Part shown: piece after piece, positions 14,517-32,735 of the stretch | Numbering within the stretch: the stretch's first letter is position 1 | How the letters are laid out: every line of letters starts with the position of its first letter | Assembly (NCBI GenBank): GCA_965372795.1 | Contig: CBDVDR010000001.1 | Location: forward strand, 128,001 to 192,000 | Direction of reading: 5' to 3' | Source: an uncultured bacterium | GTDB lineage: Bacteria; Zixibacteria; MSB-5A5; GN15; FEB-12 | Length of the DNA stretch: 64,000 nucleotides | Notes under the pieces: generated by a model | What the model was told of the DNA's origin: nothing | The model's database searches: none | The model's input: only the letters and a program-made list of their open reading frames with translations | Program-made: the position numbers and the translations under genes

Positions 14517-17500
14517 TTAAGGACAGGCTGGCAGAAGCGGACCTCCGCCGAATAAATAATCAACGAAATAAGTAATATCAGATATTCCGATCTCTTCCAA
14601 TTCATCACCATTAAAATTAGCTTCTTCAATGCAGACCGGTTCCTGACCCATGTTAAACAAGTAATCTACCATAAAGGTTAAATCAGAAATATTCGCATCG
14701 TCATCAATATCATTATTAGCATTGCCCCGATCTCCAAGACAACATCCAGATGATGGTGTAAAGAAGGATAAAGTATTTGAAGACCAAACCTCGGCACTGC
14801 TTTGATCGACAGCTTTTACTTTCCAGAAAATTTGCAGGTCAGGATTCAACGGTGATCCAAAAGTATAAGTCGTATCGGGTAACAATAAATATTCTTCATA
14901 AGAATTAAAAAATTCATCTTCAGAAATCCAAACTGTATATAGAATAAAATCAGAAGGATCATTATCACTTGAAGAATTCCATGTCAAAACCGGAAACTCG
15001 GTCTCAACAGTAGACTCATTCAATGGTGAAACCAGTGCAAATCCGCTCGGAAGTTGATTGACTGCATTTATAAAGAAAATTCGATTCTCAGAATATTCAG
15101 AATATTCATAACCATCATAAACTCTGACTCTCCAAAAATATTGCGCATCTTCGGTTAAAGTCTGATCGACTACCCACGATGTATTTGTCGGTCCTTTTGT
15201 AATTCCAACAGCAGAGGCGACCAGAGTAACCATGCCGGCATCAGAATAAACTTCGAACTCATAGGTCACATCATCTCCATCAGGATCATTTATATTTTCA
15301 GCTCTCAAAGTCGGAGTGTCAAACTCGACCAATTCATTTTGATCCGGTGCAAGAAGTTCACCAATCTCAGGTGGAACATTCATATGGAAACTCTGTGAGT
15401 TCCAGTCTGACCAGGTGACACCGTTGAAGACTCTTACCTGAAAAACATAATCAGCCCCATCCATTAACGGGGTACCGGAATACACAATACTGGTGTCATT
15501 TCCGGCAATTAGTCCTGAAGACCAATAATTATCACTATTACTGCAAAGCGACCCGGTGCCCACTTTGACCTCATATTGTGTAATTGAATTTATAGTCGTG
15601 TCCAAAATCGCCCATGAAAATTCAGGCGTATGATTAATAACATTTAAGTTTGAAACCTCATCTTTGAGATCAATCGCGGTAATCGCAGGATTTAACGACT
15701 CAACACTGTTATTAAAGAAATTCATCACTCTACCAAAAAACTCAGGACGTGTGATCTTATTCTGAAAAGCATATTCACTGGAAATTGCTTCAAATCCAAA
15801 ACTCATCAAAAACAGTTTATAGGTCCCCGTATAACTTAATCCGGTAACCCCGCCTGCTGCGATATTAAAATCTGCAATCGAACCATTAATTGTTGTCATC
15901 GACTGCATCTCAGTTTGATTTTGAGCGGCATCAAAAAGGATAGTAGCACCATCGCCAATCGGTGATCCGGGCAGACCATTATGAACCGGAGAAAATACCG
16001 TTGAGTTGTATTCAGCTTTCAAATAATTATTTAAAAAGGTCGGATCAGAGGAATTGAGCTGACTAATAAAAGATTGACCCGTCATGAACAGGTTGCCGCT
16101 ATTATCAAGAAATAGCTCAAGAGCAGTTATATCGGAAGCTGAAATCATATTAGGTCGTTCATCACCGACAAACCAGATGACCGTTTCATAATTATTTAAA
16201 TCTATGCCGCTTGGAGAACCGGAAACTGATTTATCCCATAAATCAAACGGCAGACTTTGGTTGTATAGTTCAGTTGTATAATAATTTTCATAACTGCCGC
16301 CGTTGTCATCATCAACCAATAAAATTTGTGGGACACCGATATTTAAGGCTAGACTAAAAGTATCAACTGCAATCGGATTATCTGAAGTTACGACAAGGAA
16401 AAAAGAATCAATGCAAGGTTCAAAATCAACAGGTATTGTAAAAACAATCGGATTGACTGATGAGCTATTCCCACTACTGCCGCCTTCAGCAGAAATTGTA
16501 CCGATATTCACCGAAGGTATATCAAAATTTATCGACAAATTATCTGCAAACATAGCACCGACAACATTAGTTACTTCTGCCCATTGATTAGTTAAAACAA
16601 ATTCAAATGTAATCGATTCACCCGGTTCGGCATTATCATCGCCGTTACCTAACTCTGAATCAGAAAACGACCAGTATTGTAAATTTAATTTTGGTCGGGA
16701 ATAATTAATATCAAAATTAGCATACATAAGAGTATCAGGTAGAGAAATATCCCAGACCGCAGTCTTGGTTTGATTATTTATATAATTTTGGGTGTTCGGA
16801 TTTGTTAAATCATCAAAATGGTCTTTACCGTTATAGGGCCACACATCTCCGGAGTTACCGCTGGAAGTGCCATACTCAAGTTCAAAAAGCCCATCAGCTT
16901 GTTCAATAGCTACCAGCTTGCGCCATTCATTCGAATTACCCCATTGAGTTTCATCAATGTGCATTATCTGGAGTCCCGAGGTAGGAATGCCTTTATCATT
17001 TCCACCCTTCATTCTATTCTCAATAATAAAATACTCTGGACCATAAATGCCATCTTTCCAAAGAGCATAAGCAACCGGATTATAAAGAGAAGTTGGAATT
17101 TCGACATCAATCATATTGGAAGTCACTTCGGTTAGAGTTATAAATCCAAGCTCTTTTTTGCACCAGGCATCCATAAACGACGGATAGGTCCCGCCATAAT
17201 TCCAACTGCCGCCAGCCATTAGCGACCAGTCACCAATTCCTGATGAGGAATAATCGGTATCATACAGATCCGGAAGTCCAATAAAATGACCATATTCATG
17301 TGCATAAACGCCCATTGTCGTAAAACCACCACCACTTGATTCTTCAGGTTCAGAGGTATACGAACTAATATTCACTCCATCAAGATATAAATTATTATAC
17401 ATGCCCCAGGCATGTGACCAGATTTGATTATCACTGCCGGTAGATTCAGCTCCCGGGCCGGCATGGACGATAAAGACACCATCAACATAACCGTTGTTGT

Positions 17501-18104
17501 CCCCATCAAACTGAGAAAAATCTACATCCGGGTTGGCAAGCATAACAGCATCCTCTGCCATCTTTTGAGCATTTCGAGGATAATTACCAAAACCGTTCTG
17601 TCCATCGACATAATACTCATAGGTTTGAGGTAAGCGATACCAGCCGGCGACAACTCCTTTGATGAAAAATCCATCATAGGAATTATCCATATAAAATTCT
17701 GTCATTGAGTAAGTATTATCAAACTCACTGGTAGAAAATAATAGTCGTTCAAAATCAGATTTTGTTGCTGAAAAGTTTGCCGTTGAAGGGTTCGTTGAAA
17801 AATCAGCCAATATTACAAGCACAGAAAAAGTGTCTGTCACTCCCGCTGTCAAACTAAAAGGCTGGTCCAAAGATGCTTTGTTGGCGGAAATACTTGGGTT
17901 GGGTTTATCCAATCCTCGTGATCGGGCATCTCTTATACGATCAGAAATCTCCTGAAGCTTACCGGACTCTCTTAATTGTTCAATAATATCCGGACTTGCA
18001 GATACAGCATAACTCGTTGAATAAGAGAAGATTACAAATAGCATTGTAATGAGTGAACATAAAAAAACGTGAGGGTTTTTACGAACTACAAAATTGGTTG
18101 TCAA
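14517..18104 (-). CDS. Secreted M6 family (immune inhibitor A-like) metalloprotease with Ig/FnIII-like domains and C-terminal dockerin-like domain
   Basis: HAGPG, IWSH, HEYGHFIGLPDLYD, WSLMAGGSW, EYFIIENR; C-terminal CCLGDRGN..NISDLTFMVDYLF repeat; TTG start behind AAGGAG. Confidence 0.9.
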   Translation of the reverse strand: MTTNFVVRKNPHVFLCSLITMLFVIFSYSTSYAVSASPDIIEQLRESGKLQEISDRIRDARSRGLDKPNPSISANKASLDQPFSLTAGVTDTFSVLVILADFSTNPSTANFSATKSDFERLLFSTSEFDNTYSMTEFYMDNSYDGFFIKGVVAGWYRLPQTYEYYVDGQNGFGNYPRNAQKMAEDAVMLANPDVDFSQFDGDNNGYVDGVFIVHAGPGAESTGSDNQIWSHAWGMYNNLYLDGVNISSYTSEPEESSGGGFTTMGVYAHEYGHFIGLPDLYDTDYSSSGIGDWSLMAGGSWNYGGTYPSFMDAWCKKELGFITLTEVTSNMIDVEIPTSLYNPVAYALWKDGIYGPEYFIIENRMKGGNDKGIPTSGLQIMHIDETQWGNSNEWRKLVAIEQADGLFELEYGTSSGNSGDVWPYNGKDHFDDLTNPNTQNYINNQTKTAVWDISLPDTLMYANFDINYSRPKLNLQYWSFSDSELGNGDDNAEPGESITFEFVLTNQWAEVTNVVGAMFADNLSINFDIPSVNIGTISAEGGSSGNSSSVNPIVFTIPVDFEPCIDSFFLVVTSDNPIAVDTFSLALNIGVPQILLVDDDNGGSYENYYTTELYNQSLPFDLWDKSVSGSPSGIDLNNYETVIWFVGDERPNMISASDITALELFLDNSGNLFMTGQSFISQLNSSDPTFLNNYLKAEYNSTVFSPVHNGLPGSPIGDGATILFDAAQNQTEMQSMTTINGSIADFNIAAGGVTGLSYTGTYKLFLMSFGFEAISSEYAFQNKITRPEFFGRVMNFFNNSVESLNPAITAIDLKDEVSNLNVINHTPEFSWAILDTTINSITQYEVKVGTGSLCSNSDNYWSSGLIAGNDTSIVYSGTPLMDGADYVFQVRVFNGVTWSDWNSQSFHMNVPPEIGELLAPDQNELVEFDTPTLRAENINDPDGDDVTYEFEVYSDAGMVTLVASAVGITKGPTNTSWVVDQTLTEDAQYFWRVRVYDGYEYSEYSENRIFFINAVNQLPSGFALVSPLNESTVETEFPVLTWNSSSDNDPSDFILYTVWISEDEFFNSYEEYLLLPDTTYTFGSPLNPDLQIFWKVKAVDQSSAEVWSSNTLSFFTPSSGCCLGDRGNANNDIDDDANISDLTFMVDYLFNMGQEPVCIEEANFNGDELEEIGISDITYFVDYLFGGGPLLPACP

Positions 18105-18307
18105 TTTACTCTCCTTTTGGTGTAAAAAAGTAGACAACACCAAAATATATCAATTTACACATTTGTCAATTATATAATCTATAACAATAGATATCGCAAA
18201 ATGTGCCTCAGAACTTGATTAACTTTTTTAAATAAATATATCCATTCAACTACGAAGCTTTGCTTTATTGAATACTTTATAGATCAACATATCTTATTAT
18301 AAACCAT

Positions 18308-21673: not shown

Positions 21674-22261
21674 TTAGAAAACCAAACCACCCCGCAGGAC
21701 AATGATCGGATTGGTCGAAACCTCATAAACTTCCGATCTGCCATAAGGCGCCCCAAAAATCACCAACTCACCCAACACTGCATATTTGGGATCAATAAAA
21801 AATACGATTTCTGTGCCAAGATGATAAGTCAGCAGATTTGCTTTTTTCAAAAATCCCATCTTTGCCAGATAAGCATACCCTAATCCGATAAAAGGTTTAA
21901 TCGCAAATCGCTGACGGGCTTTATTGATAATCCGTTTTAATCGGATATTCAGATCGAGGGCTTTTTCATGTTCATCATACGCATAAATATTCTGGATATT
22001 ACTCTCGAATCCAACCATCAGTTTGCGATTGATCGGGATATCAAAAAATATCCCAACCGATAAACCGGGACTGGTTTCAAAATCGTTGGCATCGGTATCG
22101 GAATCTTTAAGTTTTAGATGAATGGTACTTGAGTTGATGATGCCGGCTTTGAACCCAAACCCGCCTTTAACGATACTTTTATTAAAGGCATAAATCGGAC
22201 TACTAATTAAAATCAGAATTATTATTGCTGTAATTAATAGTATGATTTTTTTTGTCATCAA
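21674..22261 (-). CDS. Outer-membrane beta-barrel protein (8-stranded, PorT/OmpW-like)
   Basis: Signal peptide, FGFKAG first strand, KPFIGLGY, terminal Phe. Confidence 0.75.
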   Translation of the reverse strand: MMTKKIILLITAIIILILISSPIYAFNKSIVKGGFGFKAGIINSSTIHLKLKDSDTDANDFETSPGLSVGIFFDIPINRKLMVGFESNIQNIYAYDEHEKALDLNIRLKRIINKARQRFAIKPFIGLGYAYLAKMGFLKKANLLTYHLGTEIVFFIDPKYAVLGELVIFGAPYGRSEVYEVSTNPIIVLRGGLVF

Positions 22262-22338
22262 AACTCTCGGTTAAATCTTTCTTTGGTCGGTCATAATACA
22301 ATCAGAAATAATTTACTTATAAGACGTAAAAAGTCAAC

Positions 22339-22372
22339 ACACGTTGTGTGATTTAACACGTTGTGTGATTTA
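22339..22372. repeat. 17-bp perfect tandem duplication
   Basis: ACACGTTGTGTGATTTA x2. Confidence 0.9.
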
Positions 22373-22377
22373 TTATT

Positions 22378-22943
22378 CGTGGGCGGCAGACGCCCTCGTC
22401 TGCCCCATACATGTAGTGTTTCTTCGTGGGCGACAGACGTCAACCACAATTCGTGTGCTCGTCTGCCCCACTCTTCGTAGGGAACAGGCATGCCTGTTCC
22501 GTTTCTTTTACATGTTTTTCGCTGTAAATTGTTCTGTAACTGACTTATACAATGAATTGGGTTCGTTTTGTTACTTTTGACATAGTGATGTCTTTGACAC
22601 ATTTCGTGTGGTTTCATGTTCTGTTGGGTCTTGATTTGTCGAAGACAAATTGTGACCCGACAGCATTTCTCTTGAGTAGGTCAGTAGCCCTGCGCTCCTG
22701 ACGAGTTGGCAGGATCACAGGGATCCTGCCCTACTTGAACTTGATTTTGTAGTTATGATTTTGGACATAGCAAACCGTACCTCCTTTTATATAGGGGTGC
22801 AAGACCGCAATCATCAGGAAAAGTGTGGGGAATTTGTAAATTAAAGACGGGTGGCGCCCTCAAACTTGTTTGGGGGTACTGTGGACGGTTCATCCACAAT
22901 TGAATTAATTGAATAGAAACCCACCCCAAGGGGTGGGCTACCC
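22378..22943. repeat. Left cluster of REP-like palindromic elements
   Basis: GTGGGCGGCAGACG..CGTCTGCCCC, GTAGGGAACAGGCATGCCTGTTCC, GTTGGGTC..GACCCGAC, GTAGGTCAG..CTGAC/GGCAGGATC..GATCCTGCCCTAC, AACCCACCCCAAGGGGTGGGCTACCC. Confidence 0.8.
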
Positions 22944-22946
22944 AGC

Positions 22947-25553
22947 TTAAATACTATTTAATTCAATATTCTCTTTTAGTCTTTGCAAATGAAAATTATT
23001 AACATCAAGTTGTAATCCTTTGTTAACATATTCTTTTGCTTTTCCTTTGTCTTTTATATTAAAGGCTAACCACGCAAATCGAGAATAATCTTGCGCGTCC
23101 GCTTCATCTATTCTTGTATCAATAATTCCTAGTAATTCAGGAATCATAATTTGTTTTTCATCCATTCCAATTTTATCAAAGCGTTCTTTAAATAGTGCAT
23201 TACAAGTATTAACAGAATTACTTATGTCACCAAAAGGAATTTTAGGAATTTGACAAAGTTCCAATAAACTATTTATTACTTCATACCAATTCATATTCAT
23301 TTCACATAATCTTGAAATTCTTTTCCATGAATATATTTTATCTGATTTTGAGATATTATCACTCTCAAGAAATCTCATAACTGCATCGATTGAAGCATCA
23401 ATCATATTACATTCTTCGTATAATTCAGAAAGTGTTAACCATGCAGGCGTATAATTTGATGCTAAGAACTCTAATGTTTGTGAGTAATTAGATATTTCTT
23501 CTCCTTTATTACAGACCTTGTCTGCAACATGTTGAAACATACGTTCCACTCTTGGTTTAATTCCATGAATAACATCAGTTTGTTGCGATGTTCCAAAACA
23601 TTGAAGAAATTTAGTGTCTTCTTCAATTTTTCTTTTCAGTGGTGCTATGGGTAGTTTACGTTTTCCAAATATAGAAGCGACCAAAGGGACTGAAATAAAC
23701 TCCATATTGAAACTATCTTTCGAATAACTAATTTCAATAAAAGAACTCTTTGTAAGTTCATCAATCGCAGAAGTTACATCAAGTTTTTCACCTACCGATG
23801 GCTTTAAATATAGGGCTTGTAGGGCAAGCATAGGTATTGATGATCTCCAATTACAAAGAGTAAGGAAAATTCTCTTTGCTGCTTGAGATAATCCTGAAAA
23901 TGTTCTTTCAAACAGTGCTTGAAGAATATCATCTTTTGTTGCAATAATCCTTTTTACCTTTAAAACCTTTTTTTCTTTTGCAACTTCACCTAGAAGGATT
24001 TTAATTACATATGGATGACCCCTCGCTTCCTCTATTAAAGAAGTTTTGTAAGATGAAGTAATAATTTTCTGAATCCCTAATTGCTTGGAGTACCTATCAA
24101 TTAGTTCTTTACATTGTCTATCTGACATTCCACTAACTTCAATAGGATAATCTCCCTTAAATTCTCTTTTTCTTGTAGTAATTAACACTTTATTTGGTAA
24201 TCTAATATTAGTATTGATCCAATTATATGTTTCAATTGGATCTCTAACCGTCTCAAAGTTATCAAATACAAATAAAACTTTTCCTATCTCACTCTTTTGG
24301 AAATAATTCGAAAGGTAACTCAATTGTTTAAATGATTTATCATTTTTTTCTTTTGGATTTAGCAAGTTTACAAATTCTTTTGCTATCTCTTTATTTGAGA
24401 CAGTATGAGGTCTCACGATTTTAGGTCCTGTTTGAAGTAAATCAATGTCTCGTGCACTAAACCAGATTATTACATTAAAATTTGAATGTAAAGCAATGTC
24501 ATGTAATACTGTTAGACCAAGCCATGTTTTGCCAATTCCCCCTCTACCTAAAAGTGTAATCATTGGGTGTCTATCATCAAGCAAACACTTATGAAGCTCT
24601 TCCTCTAACTTATTCCTACAAATGTAATTATTAGGCTTGTCAGGTATGTTTGTAAATGTGTCGCCAATTGTTCTTAAACTTTCCAAGCCCTGCGTTTCAC
24701 TTTTAGGTAGATTTTCAACTGGTGTGAGGTATGGAGAAGAATCTTCTTCTTTTTTATTACCTGAATAATATGAAAGTAATTCAAATTTATTTTCTGTAAA
24801 TCCACCATTCGGAAAATAAAAATCTGATGCATCAGGATCTGAGAAAATTAAATCAATCTTTGTGAATTTATCAGAATAAATATAAAGACCATCTCGAAGA
24901 TTTTGATTTGTACTGTGTTTAAAAATATCAAAACAATCCACATTTTCGGAAATTGATGTTACCCTGTATTTTCTTGATATATTCTGATATAAATACGCCC
25001 ATGGTTTCTTAAAAAGACTTAAATTTTCTACAATTAATTGAATTGATCCTTCAAGTAAATAACATGCTTGGCTGACTTTTGCTACAGTTGGTGCTCCATG
25101 CCCTCTTGTCTTATTTCTTAACACTACAAAATCAATTATCCACTTTTTCAATGGAACTTTTGGCATAGTTTCGAATTGTTTAATATCTAGTAAAAATAGT
25201 ACTTGTTCCAATTTTGCAACTGCTTCAAATTGCCAATCACCTTCTCCGACCTTTTGTGTTATTTCTTTTCTATCATCAATAATTGATGGTTGGATAAATT
25301 GTGAAGCAGGTCCATTTAGGGCATCAAATAGTGCCGCTTCCCAAGCACCAAGACTGCTGGCATGGACTAAATTATACGACAATCTATATCTATGTTTATC
25401 TTTTTCATCTTCGATACACGCAATAATGCTTGCAGTAATTAATTTTGTAATCATTTCTCCAAAATATAATAAATCCAAAAATAATGATGCGTCTGAATCT
25501 TCTCTTGTAATAGAAATTCTTTCCCACATTTTATCAATTGGTCTAAATTGCAT
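22947..25553 (-). CDS. NB-ARC/STAND NTPase with N-terminal HEPN-like motif and C-terminal TPR-like helices; candidate antiviral protein
   Basis: Walker A GRGGIGKT, Walker B VLFVFDNFE, sensor LITTR, GHP motif; N-terminal RNKTRGH; ATG 25553 behind GCGGGGA. Confidence 0.85.
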   Translation of the reverse strand: MQFRPIDKMWERISITREDSDASLFLDLLYFGEMITKLITASIIACIEDEKDKHRYRLSYNLVHASSLGAWEAALFDALNGPASQFIQPSIIDDRKEITQKVGEGDWQFEAVAKLEQVLFLLDIKQFETMPKVPLKKWIIDFVVLRNKTRGHGAPTVAKVSQACYLLEGSIQLIVENLSLFKKPWAYLYQNISRKYRVTSISENVDCFDIFKHSTNQNLRDGLYIYSDKFTKIDLIFSDPDASDFYFPNGGFTENKFELLSYYSGNKKEEDSSPYLTPVENLPKSETQGLESLRTIGDTFTNIPDKPNNYICRNKLEEELHKCLLDDRHPMITLLGRGGIGKTWLGLTVLHDIALHSNFNVIIWFSARDIDLLQTGPKIVRPHTVSNKEIAKEFVNLLNPKEKNDKSFKQLSYLSNYFQKSEIGKVLFVFDNFETVRDPIETYNWINTNIRLPNKVLITTRKREFKGDYPIEVSGMSDRQCKELIDRYSKQLGIQKIITSSYKTSLIEEARGHPYVIKILLGEVAKEKKVLKVKRIIATKDDILQALFERTFSGLSQAAKRIFLTLCNWRSSIPMLALQALYLKPSVGEKLDVTSAIDELTKSSFIEISYSKDSFNMEFISVPLVASIFGKRKLPIAPLKRKIEEDTKFLQCFGTSQQTDVIHGIKPRVERMFQHVADKVCNKGEEISNYSQTLEFLASNYTPAWLTLSELYEECNMIDASIDAVMRFLESDNISKSDKIYSWKRISRLCEMNMNWYEVINSLLELCQIPKIPFGDISNSVNTCNALFKERFDKIGMDEKQIMIPELLGIIDTRIDEADAQDYSRFAWLAFNIKDKGKAKEYVNKGLQLDVNNFHLQRLKENIELNSI

Positions 25554-25591
25554 AGTATTCCCCGCACTGTAAATGTTGTGTAATGTGTTCA

Positions 25592-25620
25592 AATATATGA
25601 TAAATACATCTTTTTGTCAA
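25592..25620 (-). promoter_or_regulatory. Sigma70-type promoter of the NB-ARC gene
   Basis: TTGACA-N17-TATATT on the minus strand. Confidence 0.65.
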
Positions 25621-25666
25621 TATCCACACAACTTCAATGGTGATTACTGATCCGCACCCAATTAAT

Positions 25667-26452
25667 ATGAGACACTATACAAAAAAACAAAAGCTGGCGA
25701 ACCAACGGAACGCCAAAAAATCCACCGGGCCAAAGACGCCCGAGGGTAAAGCAAAATCATCGCAAAATGCGATCAAACACGGCCTCTATGCCAAATCGGT
25801 CATCATCCGCTCGCCCAACTACAACGAAGACCGCAACGAGTACGACCAACTCGCCCAATCACTCTTTGAAGAACTAAAACCCGCAACCCATTTCCAGGAA
25901 ACCCTGGTCATCAAAATCATCAACTGCCTCTGGCGCAGCAAACGGGTCGTAATCGCCGAAACCGCCAAAATCTCTAAACAAATTAACCTTGTTACAAAAA
26001 ACCACGATCCCAAAAATGGGGAGAACGAACTTGTCAACGAAATTGGTATCAATCTGATTCCGACCGATAATTACAGCATTAACCTGATGCGCCATGAAAT
26101 GCGCCTCGACAAACAACTTAACCGTACTTATGAGCTCCTGAAACAACTCCAGAAAACATCCAAACCCAAAAGTAAATCTAAAAGTAACAAAACGAACCCA
26201 TTTAACAATCAAAAGAAAAGTGATAATTTACGTGGGCGGCAGACGTCCTCGTCTGCCCCAAAGGTACGTGGTGGCAGTCAACCACACCATGTGTGCTCGT
26301 CTGCCCCAGAGATAAACACCCCTGAAGTCAGCGATGCACAAATCGTCCGTGATCTGATCAAACTTTCTAAATTACATGACATGGAAATCCTGACCCCGAC
26401 CCCTTTGGAAAAACTAAACAGGATTTCAAAAAACAAGTCTTCACCCTTGTAG
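25667..26452 (+). CDS. Hypothetical protein of the 'ANxxNAxKSTGPKTxEGK...NAxKHGL' family
   Basis: Recognisable N-terminal motif, then helical 'P...E..LV..I....WR..R' region; C-terminus formed partly by in-frame REP-like sequences; alternative start 25637. Confidence 0.75.
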   Translation: MRHYTKKQKLANQRNAKKSTGPKTPEGKAKSSQNAIKHGLYAKSVIIRSPNYNEDRNEYDQLAQSLFEELKPATHFQETLVIKIINCLWRSKRVVIAETAKISKQINLVTKNHDPKNGENELVNEIGINLIPTDNYSINLMRHEMRLDKQLNRTYELLKQLQKTSKPKSKSKSNKTNPFNNQKKSDNLRGRQTSSSAPKVRGGSQPHHVCSSAPEINTPEVSDAQIVRDLIKLSKLHDMEILTPTPLEKLNRISKNKSSPL

Positions 26453-30674: not shown

Positions 30675-32735
30675 ATGCTGAAAATTCTGGACAAAAAATT
30701 AGGTTTATACTTGCTGGCCGGGATAGCCTTTTATTTCATCATAGCCCAACATTTAGGACATCACCTGTTTGACAATAACTGGTCATTTTACCATTTCGAT
30801 TCAATTCCAACCTGGTATTTCTTTTTATGGATTTCAGTATTTATTTCATCAATAGTAATTTTCTTTAATTATCAAAAAAGTTTTGGACGATTTATTGATG
30901 GAAAACTTAATGCCCGTGTCGCCGGGGTGGCATTGTTTTTATTATTTATAATTTTCAGGTACGATTCTTTTGTGTTCGGTGACGGTAATCTTCGCATTAA
31001 TCAAATTGGAATAACAGAAAATATCTTTATCCGTTGGTTTGAATTTGGTTCAATATGGACAGTTAAAATAATTTATGAAATAATAAATTTTGTTGGCAGT
31101 TATTTTGACAATTTTAATCAGCCTACAGTTTATCGACTAAAACTATTCGCCGCAGCTAATGCCTGGATTGTCTTCTCGTATATTTCAATTATCTTAGCAG
31201 CAATATCCGCTTTCAAAATCACTCATGAACTCAGCCCCGATCATTCCCGTCGCTGGTTAATATTTGTAATTCTGTTTTTTGGACCACAAAGTTTACTTTA
31301 TTTTGGATATACCGGACTTGAACCTGTTATTGTAGCTTTTATTTATTGGTTCGCACTGTTTGCAATTAAATTATCTTATCGTTTTACAACAAATCGATTA
31401 ATGATGCTTTGGTTGATTCAATTACTGGCGATATTCTTCCACATCAGTCTTGTAATACTAATTCCAGCTTCAATTTATATATCAATAAAATCACTTATCA
31501 AATGGAAATTCAGACGAAAACTGGCGATAACTTTTGCCATGGCTGCATATTTGATAATGATTGTTGTGACATATATACTTTCCCGGGAAAATTTTGAATT
31601 TTCTAAATACATTCTGTTTCTATCCGGCAAGAATCCTCACTCTGATTATGGTTTGTTTTCTCTCAGACATTTAGGTGATATTTTTCAAGCCTTCGGATTT
31701 CTTTTCCCTCAATTTATAGTAATTTTTTATCTCTTAATCGGAAAAGACAAATTCAGAAATATTAAAGGAATGGGTGTTTCGATAATTATTGCAATTCCGG
31801 CACTAACCTTATTTTTTATTGCCGATCCAATCAACGGCATGCCATTTGATATCCCCCGGTTTACAGCTTTGCTCACGCCGCTGTCATTAGTGTTGGTTTT
31901 GGCAGTACGCGATGTTGATTTTTGCATCAAAGGAATCCCAATCTTTACCCGTTCGTTAGCAGCTCTTTGTATGTTCGTACCTTTGAGTTATATACCGGTC
32001 TATACTAACATACATCTTGCTGATAAATATCTTTCAAAATTTCTCGATAATAACGAAGTATATTTTTTAAGTGGAAGCATCTCTTTCAGGGATTCATATT
32101 TTTATAAAAATAATTTTGATAAAGCAAATTATTGGGAATGGGAACAGCCGAAGAAATCACCTGATTATATCAATTTTGCCGGTTGTACAAATTTGGTTGG
32201 GAATGAACAATACTCTGATGCTTTCAAAACCCTAAACCTCATTATTGCACAGCACCCTTACTGGGTTGGTCCTCGATCTTTACTGGCTTCAACTCAATTG
32301 TTGACTAATAACCCGCAACTGGCTAAACCTAATATCGACACTTGTCTTTTGCTTGAACCCTTTGAAAAAGAACACCACCGTCAATTGTTTTTGTATTATC
32401 AATCAATAAAAAATTACCCCGATGCATTTAATGTGGTTGAAAATTCATTAGAGTTGTACCCATCAGACACCGGTTTCCTGATTGATTTAATGGTCTTGCA
32501 CAACACTATTGGCAACATACCCTCAGCTGATTCTTTAGCTAACAAAATAATACAGATTGATCCTGATATTGCATACCCTTATGCAATCAAAGCTTTTATT
32601 GCAGAACGAACGAAAAATATAAAATCTGCGATTGGGTTTTATGAGGAATTTATCAGATTAGCTCCGGATGATCCCGAGACACCTTCAATCAGAAAAAGAT
32701 TAAACAATCTTATTCTCAAGCAAAAAGAACAATAA
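30675..32735 (+). CDS. Multi-pass membrane protein with C-terminal TPR repeats
   Basis: More than ten hydrophobic segments, then TPR-like helices (..LELYPSD.., ..IRLAPDDP..). Confidence 0.75.
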   Translation: MLKILDKKLGLYLLAGIAFYFIIAQHLGHHLFDNNWSFYHFDSIPTWYFFLWISVFISSIVIFFNYQKSFGRFIDGKLNARVAGVALFLLFIIFRYDSFVFGDGNLRINQIGITENIFIRWFEFGSIWTVKIIYEIINFVGSYFDNFNQPTVYRLKLFAAANAWIVFSYISIILAAISAFKITHELSPDHSRRWLIFVILFFGPQSLLYFGYTGLEPVIVAFIYWFALFAIKLSYRFTTNRLMMLWLIQLLAIFFHISLVILIPASIYISIKSLIKWKFRRKLAITFAMAAYLIMIVVTYILSRENFEFSKYILFLSGKNPHSDYGLFSLRHLGDIFQAFGFLFPQFIVIFYLLIGKDKFRNIKGMGVSIIIAIPALTLFFIADPINGMPFDIPRFTALLTPLSLVLVLAVRDVDFCIKGIPIFTRSLAALCMFVPLSYIPVYTNIHLADKYLSKFLDNNEVYFLSGSISFRDSYFYKNNFDKANYWEWEQPKKSPDYINFAGCTNLVGNEQYSDAFKTLNLIIAQHPYWVGPRSLLASTQLLTNNPQLAKPNIDTCLLLEPFEKEHHRQLFLYYQSIKNYPDAFNVVENSLELYPSDTGFLIDLMVLHNTIGNIPSADSLANKIIQIDPDIAYPYAIKAFIAERTKNIKSAIGFYEEFIRLAPDDPETPSIRKRLNNLILKQKEQ

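Follow-up and report, generated by a model that had tools for sequence, protein, structure and literature searches.

Within the window analyzed here, a 64,000-nt stretch of contig CBDVDR010000001.1 from an uncultured bacterium of the Zixibacteria, the minus strand encodes an 868-aa protein (22947..25553) that we consider reasonably likely to be a horizontally acquired, single-gene antiphage protein of the kind that resembles receptors with nucleotide-binding and leucine-rich repeat regions (NLRs): a signal transduction ATPase with numerous domains (STAND) of the NB-ARC clade, acting through a HEPN RNase mechanism. It joins an N-terminal HEPN-like head, with an Rx5H motif in the HEPN position, to a small beta-rich domain, an NTPase with intact motifs, and a C-terminal TPR-like repeat; its relatives are spread sporadically among many phyla and are associated with defense genes and prophages. 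The protein represents a widespread, probably uncatalogued Avs-like STAND family distinguished by its HEPN-type head, an additional beta domain, and a sensor that is unusually short. Because relatives lie beside restriction systems and inside prophages, the gene is most likely an antiphage gene, of an unnamed but conventional kind. All coordinates are positions in the window unless a locus of a relative (an L number) is given.

Domain architecture and the NTPase core

The longest open reading frame (ORF) at the locus is 22947..25592 (minus strand; 881 aa, TTG start), and an ATG at 25553, preceded 4 nt upstream by a purine-rich GGGGAA, gives the 868-aa product. An earlier sequence-only reading had described this product as a three-part protein in the effector–STAND–TPR layout of Avs and NLR-like defense proteins, with an intact STAND NTPase and a helical, TPR-like C-terminus. 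The gene is intact, and every motif on which that reading was built is present in the translation (LRNKTRGHG 145–153, GRGGIGKT 336–343, VFDNFE 429–434, ITTR 458–461, and GHP 512–514); the layout was likewise recovered from Pfam and structural models. Two AlphaFold2 models, one of residues 1–310 (40 sequences; predicted local distance difference test score, pLDDT, 88.4; predicted template modeling score, pTM, 0.85) and one of the full length (115 sequences; pLDDT 93.5; pTM 0.74), agree on the domain parts. They bear out the NTPase and the helical C-terminus and revise the division into three, as the N-terminal ~300 residues consist of two domains and a linker rather than one domain. The parts are as follows, with conservation counts here and below taken from an alignment of 115 full-length homologs:

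22947..25553, minus strand: coding sequence, 868 aa, HEPN-like / beta / NB-ARC / winged-helix / TPR-like (ORF and translation)
25008..25553, minus strand: helical HEPN-like domain, residues 1–182 (AlphaFold2 models)
25098..25118, minus strand: R146-N-K-T-R-G-H152, the Rx5H motif (alignment)
24741..25001, minus strand: small beta-rich domain, residues 185–271, 7 strands (AlphaFold2 models)
24615..24740, minus strand: conserved linker, residues 272–313, with L-P-x-S-E-T-x-G at 282–289 and the pre-P-loop R313 (alignment)
24123..24614, minus strand: P-loop NTPase domain, residues 314–477 (Pfam NB-ARC and invariant motifs)
23949..24122, minus strand: helical ARC1-like domain, residues 478–535, with G-H-P-Y at 512–515 (model and alignment)
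23685..23948, minus strand: winged-helix domain, residues 536–623, helices and a beta hairpin (model)
22950..23684, minus strand: 14-helix TPR-like repeat, residues 624–868, the putative sensor (model)

By profile and predicted fold, the protein is a STAND NTPase of the NB-ARC (AP-ATPase) clade. Pfam NB-ARC matches residues 317–532 with an E-value of 3.5e-14 (53.1 bits against a gathering cut-off of 23.5), and a search of the 868-aa protein against NCBIfam gave nothing useful beyond Pfam. Invariant in 115/115 sequences are Walker A G336, G338, G339, G341, K342, and T343; Walker B D431, together with E434 and T435; sensor-1 T459 and R461; H513, P514, and Y515; and R313. The invariance of the Walker A, Walker B, sensor-1, and GxP residues indicates, at the level of the alignment, that the NTPase is intact and under selection. 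The linker is also well kept (S285 in 112/115, T287 in 111/115, R313 in 115/115). In the winged-helix region, no column of residues 536–659 has His in at least 40% of the 115 sequences, and the MHD/LHD-type motif of plant and animal members is therefore lacking; not every bacterial STAND carries it.

Foldseek searches of the full model against the PDB returned STAND proteins throughout, headed by the STAND–TPR protein 6mfv (E = 1e-10) and including CED-4, Apaf-1, plant NLR resistosomes, SAMD9, and MalT (8bob), with Avs3 (8dgc) at rank 37 (E = 3.9e-7) and EfAvs5 (9jap) at rank 44. E-values of 1e-10 to 1e-6 for 6mfv, CED-4, Apaf-1, and the plant NLRs indicate that the predicted fold of the nucleotide-binding, ARC1, and winged-helix domains is like that of the solved members. 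At the C-terminal end, the model places 14 helices over residues 624–868, with a TPR_8 match at 824–850 (E = 0.0033) that falls under the Pfam cut-off; some homologs have precomputed TPR Pfam matches. Mean pairwise identity is 0.50 in the P-loop domain, 0.48 in the winged helix, 0.43 in the linker, 0.42 in the ARC1-like domain, 0.40 in the beta domain, 0.365 in the head, and 0.31 in the TPR-like repeat, which is the most variable part, yet alignable throughout the homologs.

The N-terminal head and the beta domain

The AlphaFold2 models divide the head into the following elements:

H1: residues 4–17
H2: residues 21–45
helical insert: residues 46–134
H3: residues 135–149
H4: residues 157–182

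In both models, R146 and N147 end the helix 135–149, and H152 lies in the adjoining loop, before the following helix; E33 and K37 stand in the second helix (21–45), and residues 46–134 form a helical insertion between H2 and H3. R146, N147, and E33 are kept in 115/115 homologs, and H152, G153, and K37 in 114/115. As described in PMC3710099, the HEPN fold has a four-helix up-down core with an acidic residue of helix 2 conserved beside the motif. The predicted head shares the features given there—the four-helix core, the motif spanning the close of H3 and the H3–H4 loop, the acidic residue E33 in helix 2, and an insert between H2 and H3—and the spacing R146-x5-H152 falls within the HEPN pattern Rx4–6H. 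The sequence-only reading had called the head HEPN-like and its R/H pair a nuclease signature. The pair proved conserved, and the topology and the canonical place of the motif agree with that call; a profile link did not emerge, and the structural matches are weak. On the motif and the predicted topology, rather than on sequence homology, we judge it very probable that the head is a HEPN domain, from a lineage that current profiles miss.

Structural comparison of the head was made by an exhaustive VIA search, in which entries were called HEPN from their title or from their presence in Table 1 of PMC3710099. HEPN proteins account for at least 9 of the 50 listed matches (Z 4.3–6.0), including ranks 3, 4, and 6 (1jog, 1wwp, and 8xdj), the other six being 7ae2, two Csm6 structures, LsoA, RnlA, and 2pbe. 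Roquin at rank 1 and HepS at rank 46 likewise contain HEPN domains. In the ESM Atlas, queried with the homolog P0097, clusters of HEPN PF05168 and DUF4145 appeared as structural neighbors at template modeling (TM) scores of 0.40–0.57, below the bar and to be taken as a lead only. Folding two copies of the isolated head gave ipSAE values of 0.06 and 0.05 (mark, 0.42), which speak neither for nor against pairing.

The beta domain contains two invariant glycines (G222 and G250), and N249 is found in 114/115 homologs. Neither Pfam nor the ESM Atlas (P0097 query) assigned residues 185–271 to a family. As a separate observation, the ESM Atlas lists a predicted domain resembling it for a further NB-ARC cluster (737 aa; TM 0.59), a lead only, and two clusters of hypothetical proteins are similar as well (TM 0.59–0.63 overall).

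Phyletic distribution and base composition

A search with the whole protein gave 2581 matches at E ≤0.001 among the 8000 candidates scored, and the top 120 are 835–894 aa long with 96–100% query cover and 43–50% identity; full-length homologs of 33–50% identity occur in many phyla. The head by itself, searched against 1.84 billion representatives, recovered 603 proteins, of which the best 150 are mostly ~830–930 aa or shorter pieces. Of 12 head relatives of odd length that were tested, 11 retain NB-ARC behind the head and one, of 413 aa, is a fragment; the head is accordingly known only in this architecture, and, as far as these sequences go, the architecture of the family is fixed.

Relatives were found in 268 of 185,579 species genomes. 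From the 268 stretches encoding a relative we kept 80 loci, which belong to Acidobacteriota, Planctomycetota, Chloroflexota, Bacteroidota, Myxococcota, Actinomycetota, Pseudomonadota, Verrucomicrobiota, Bacillota, and several candidate phyla. The distribution is sporadic and covers many phyla. Within the order to which the window's genome belongs, the gene is present in only 1 of 41 genomes (1 of 35 high-quality ones), namely that genome itself, where it is single-copy. Several relatives seem to be broken or interrupted: the one at L051 (8001–8570) has 2 stops in the first 190 codons; at L079 (8001–11851), the match is stretched over 3.85 kb; at L043 (475–2369), the match is shortened; and at L054 (8001–9969), in mid-contig, only residues 3–657 were matched.

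In the window, GC content inside the gene is 0.305–0.324 against 0.40–0.446 in both flanks. The gene is also bracketed by candidate expression signals:

25592..25620, minus strand: sigma-70-like promoter TTGACA-17-TATATT (11/12, a consensus match only)
22912..22937, minus strand: terminator-like hairpin CCCACCC-CUUG-GGGUGGG, then UUUCUAUU, beginning 10 nt past the stop codon

The promoter-like site scores highest of those in 22200–25900, a region in which such sites are not in excess (14 against a shuffle mean of 15.4). The hairpin has a 7-bp G+C-rich stem (minimum free energy −19.1 kcal/mol; z −2.0) and is absent from the output of the sequence scan. With a promoter-like site of its own, a terminator-like hairpin, and the drop in GC, the gene looks like a self-contained, compositionally foreign unit. 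The promoter and the AT-richness had been noted in the sequence-only reading together with a proposal of horizontal acquisition, and the last of these is consistent with the GC drop and the presence in 1/41 related genomes.

Genomic context of relatives

A simple ORF caller found the gene intact in 68 of the 80 loci; the other 12 were dropped for contig ends, for a broken appearance, or for lying outside the length or motif filter. All-against-all BLAST of 372 neighbors from the 68 loci revealed no conserved neighbor, the largest cluster being type I restriction-modification (R-M) subunits from 7 loci, and the absence of a conserved partner gene indicates that this is not a two-gene system.

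Genes of defense and of mobile elements are nonetheless found next to the relatives. Adjacent R-M genes comprise HsdM/S/R (L022, L061, L067, L070, L074, and L077), GmrSD (L004 and L060), and Eco57I-type enzymes (L034 and L066). At L061 (8001–10571) the order is hsdS–gene–hsdR and at L074 (8001–10568) hsdR–gene–hsdM, with short gaps and all on one strand; embedding in a type I R-M operon is verified in 2 of the 68 loci. At L022, L067, L070, and L077, a type I methylase or specificity subunit is encoded by one of the adjacent genes. Other adjacent genes encode defense-associated domains, namely TIR (L008), Schlafen/AlbA_2 (L010), and HEPN_Swt1 (L041), or toxin–antitoxin components, namely HipA (L004 and L073) and AbiEi with HicA (L056). 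Mobile-element genes in the same position are integrases or transposases (L009, L033, L038, and L050) and a plasmid Rep3 gene (L027), and ArdC lies next to the relative in L066.

The earlier expectation that homologs would be enriched near defense genes was borne out. Of 132 ORFs adjacent to the gene, 28 matched a PADLOC model at E ≤1e-5, and these came from 26 of the 68 loci; among 96 distal ORFs at the outer edges of those loci (median distance 6.9 kb), 5 did so (Fisher odds ratio 4.9; p = 5e-4). ORFs that share a locus are not independent of each other, and matching a PADLOC hidden Markov model is not the same as being called a system. Setting aside six doubtful adjacent matches (a beta-galactosidase, two helix-turn-helix proteins, an ankyrin protein, and two weak ones) leaves 22 of 132 (p = 0.012).

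Relatives are also carried by prophages. Nine loci with relatives (L091–L099) were recovered from IMG/VR, and PHROGs annotation of 75 neighboring ORFs places phage structural genes beside the gene in 7 of the 9:

L091: baseplate, major head, and portal next to the gene
L092: baseplate next to the gene
L093 and L094: Mu-F-like head protein and large terminase next to the gene
L095: portal next to the gene
L096: phage regulatory genes, with CI-like repressor, CII, ParB, and transposase
L097: only integrase and methylase
L098: tail proteins and tape measure next to the gene
L099: portal and large terminase next to the gene

At L099 (5807–8419), the gene stands between a gpA-like replication nickase and the portal/terminase genes, that is, in the P2 gpA–gpQ locus, which is described as a hotspot of antiphage systems (Rousset et al., PMC9122126).

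Evidence against and alternative readings

Several results weigh against an antiphage protein with a HEPN head. Pfam assigns no family to the first 300 residues of the protein, and over the heads of 53 homologs it gave HEPN_Swt1 in 1/53 (E = 0.061) and nothing consistent. A profile search with the head against PDB sequences returned chance-level rows only (E = 0.63 and 2), and hhalign of the head with a Swt1-HEPN profile, the one HEPN family profile tried, gave a probability of 0.3%, that alignment being a narrow one built from a neighbor of the relative at L041. On the structural side, Foldseek found no match of the N-terminal model in the PDB at E ≤0.001, and the best match of the VIA search reached Z 6.0, in a range common for helical bundles. 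No family in PADLOC-DB v2.0.0, which does not include types named after 2023, matches the 868-aa protein at E up to 1. The 12 proteins around the gene in the window, which include an M6 peptidase, an EamA transporter, five without a Pfam family, and the products of dnaX, ybaB, and recR, have no meaningful PADLOC match either. Among deposited phage genomes, 0 of 50,697 records contain a match, and the 7 full-length matches in the plasmid collection all lie on the 1.9-Mb megaplasmid of one species.

The results on the head bear most directly on a reading in which the protein is a defense STAND with a head that is not an RNase—an adaptor, a nucleotide-binding domain, or another effector, with RN..H serving ligand binding or autoinhibition and the beta domain perhaps being the effector. 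The missing profile link to any HEPN family and the weak structural matches fit such a head, some HEPN families are non-catalytic (Table 1 of PMC3710099), and the beta domain, with a mean identity of 0.40 to the head's 0.365, is no less conserved and has no family assigned. Against this stands the pattern of catalytic HEPN domains, in which R146 and N147 are invariant, H152 is kept in 114/115, and the acidic residue of helix 2 is invariant, all in their canonical places, whereas the beta domain has no recognizable catalytic motif; we therefore hold a non-RNase head to be unlikely.

The mobile-element genes near relatives (plasmid Rep3 at L027, ArdC at L066, and the integrases or transposases at L009, L033, L038, and L050), the full-length copies on the 1.9-Mb megaplasmid, and the carriage by prophages could also be read as signs of a competition or addiction module on prophages, plasmids, or islands, one that excludes rivals or stabilizes its carrier and fires on plasmid or rival cues. 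We find this distinctly improbable, because the architecture and contexts match those of proven antiphage Avs proteins and no conserved partner antitoxin gene accompanies the family. A STAND of the MalT/AfsR type with a housekeeping or regulatory role, acting in RNA turnover or stress control with no role in conflict, would suit the position of the window copy among ordinary genes by dnaX–ybaB–recR with no defense neighbor, and the unusually even conservation along the whole protein, but is very improbable given the lack of a DNA-binding domain (Pfam), the presence in 1/41 relatives, the base composition atypical for the region, the neighbors of relatives enriched in defense genes, and the carriage by prophages.

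Comparison with known systems

A single-gene antiphage STAND is best compared with the Avs proteins (Avs1–5 and Avs7–24), which likewise combine an N-terminal effector, a STAND NTPase, and a C-terminal TPR-like sensor in one polypeptide and are likewise sporadic, horizontally moved, and found in defense islands and prophages; the structural matches include Avs3 and Avs5. As no PADLOC family matches it, the protein is not one of the Avs types modeled in that database. It differs from Avs in its effector region, with a HEPN-like domain and then an extra beta domain, and in its sensor of only ~245 aa, against the at least 400 aa used for sensor clustering in PMC13581612. According to that study, antiviral STANDs comprise at least 90 sensor families and 589 STAND clades, with Avs1–24 named; since its clustering excluded sensors of <400 aa, it would exclude the family of the 868-aa protein. 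Its main text names no HEPN effector for Avs7–21, and the three mentions of HEPN there all concern a protein that lacks a STAND module and has the sensor of Avs7. Seven of its supplementary files, the large tables not being among them, contain neither "HEPN" nor any of four organism names. A full-text literature search found no experimental study of a HEPN–NB-ARC–TPR protein.

Fusions of HEPN, STAND ATPase, and TPR were catalogued in 2013 (Anantharaman et al., PMC3710099, Table 1: Npun_F6454, MED222_16016, and Desac_1927), and these, too, have an N-terminal HEPN ahead of a STAND NTPase and TPRs. They are filed with Swt1/CXorf38-like HEPN, some with S1/OB, a difference drawn from their description only, whereas the head studied here has no profile similarity to the Swt1-HEPN alignment. 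PrrC and RloC also place a HEPN RNase under the control of an NTPase in one polypeptide (the RNase being a predicted one here), and PrrC lies inside a type I R-M operon (PMC3710099), as do the relatives at L061 and L074. In PrrC and RloC, however, the NTPase is ABC/Rad50-like, the HEPN is C-terminal, and there is no repeat sensor, while here the NTPase is NB-ARC and the HEPN-like domain N-terminal. With Apaf-1, CED-4, and plant NB-ARC NLRs, which rank with the best structural matches to the NTPase–ARC–winged-helix core, the protein shares Pfam NB-ARC, the TTR sensor-1, and the GxP motif; it differs from them in having no conserved winged-helix His and hence no MHD/LHD-type motif, a TPR-like sensor rather than WD40 or leucine-rich repeats, and a putative effector that would be an enzyme instead of a CARD, coiled-coil, or TIR adaptor.

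Proposed mechanism and implications

At rest, an ADP-bound NTPase and the C-terminal TPR-like repeat would keep the protein closed and monomeric. The cue of infection, most probably a phage protein, would bind the TPR-like repeat, and nucleotide exchange would then lead to oligomerization through NB-ARC, as in Avs3, Avs4, Avs7, and apoptosomes. Oligomerization could pair the HEPN-like heads, so that the R146/H152 sites form a metal-independent RNase whose cleavage of tRNA or of other cellular or phage RNA would stop translation and abort the infection. HEPN RNases work as dimers with their Rx4–6H motifs paired, and the RNase step is proposed for this reason. For cue binding, nucleotide exchange, and oligomerization, the analogy is with the solved Avs3, Avs4, Avs5, and Avs7 (see PMC13581612) and with apoptosomes. 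The trigger, the oligomerization, the RNase activity, and the protection are inferences, whereas the architecture, motifs, distribution, and associations described above are observations.

Although the TPR-like sensor is short, it is recognizably conserved across more than 10 phyla, which could hint at a universal infection cue rather than one phage structural protein; if so, the cue could be host-derived, a nucleic acid, or a small ligand. This thought leads to a reading that we regard as doubtful: a compact one-gene NLR whose RNase head belongs to a HEPN lineage invisible to all profile libraries, whose new beta adaptor also occurs in other NB-ARC clusters, and whose TPR sensor reads a universal cue. 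If true, it would be a bacterial counterpart of the logic of RNase L, with a repeat sensor, a nucleotide-binding module, and a HEPN nuclease. The beta domain, seen in predicted models, may be an adaptor shared between effectors and NB-ARC modules. Under the favored reading of a single-gene antiphage STAND, the family would leave the current picture of bacterial immunity unchanged, and it marks a gap in the coverage of PADLOC and Pfam. The searched text of PMC13581612 contains no characterized antiviral STAND with a HEPN RNase effector. Encoded by one small gene and modeled very confidently, the protein would be an easy system for studying how NLR oligomerization might switch on a predicted RNase, and the family could show what a 245-residue TPR sensor recognizes.

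Neighboring genes in the window

For a synteny comparison aimed at an empty insertion site, the 271-aa neighbor proved to belong to a multi-copy family and the relatives to be too distant. This neighbor (25637–26452, plus strand), divergent from the gene on its right-hand side, has no Pfam family; a 79%-identical copy with an internal TAA lies on another contig of the same genome, and several paralogs occur in related genomes. Directly after recR, a 686-aa protein (30675–32735, plus strand) has sub-threshold C-terminal TPR matches and no PADLOC match; with a GC content of 0.34–0.36 against ~0.40 around it, this gene may be a second foreign insertion. On the other side, 14517–18143 (minus strand) encodes an M6 metallopeptidase (immune inhibitor A-like) of 1208 aa that has an Ig-like domain.

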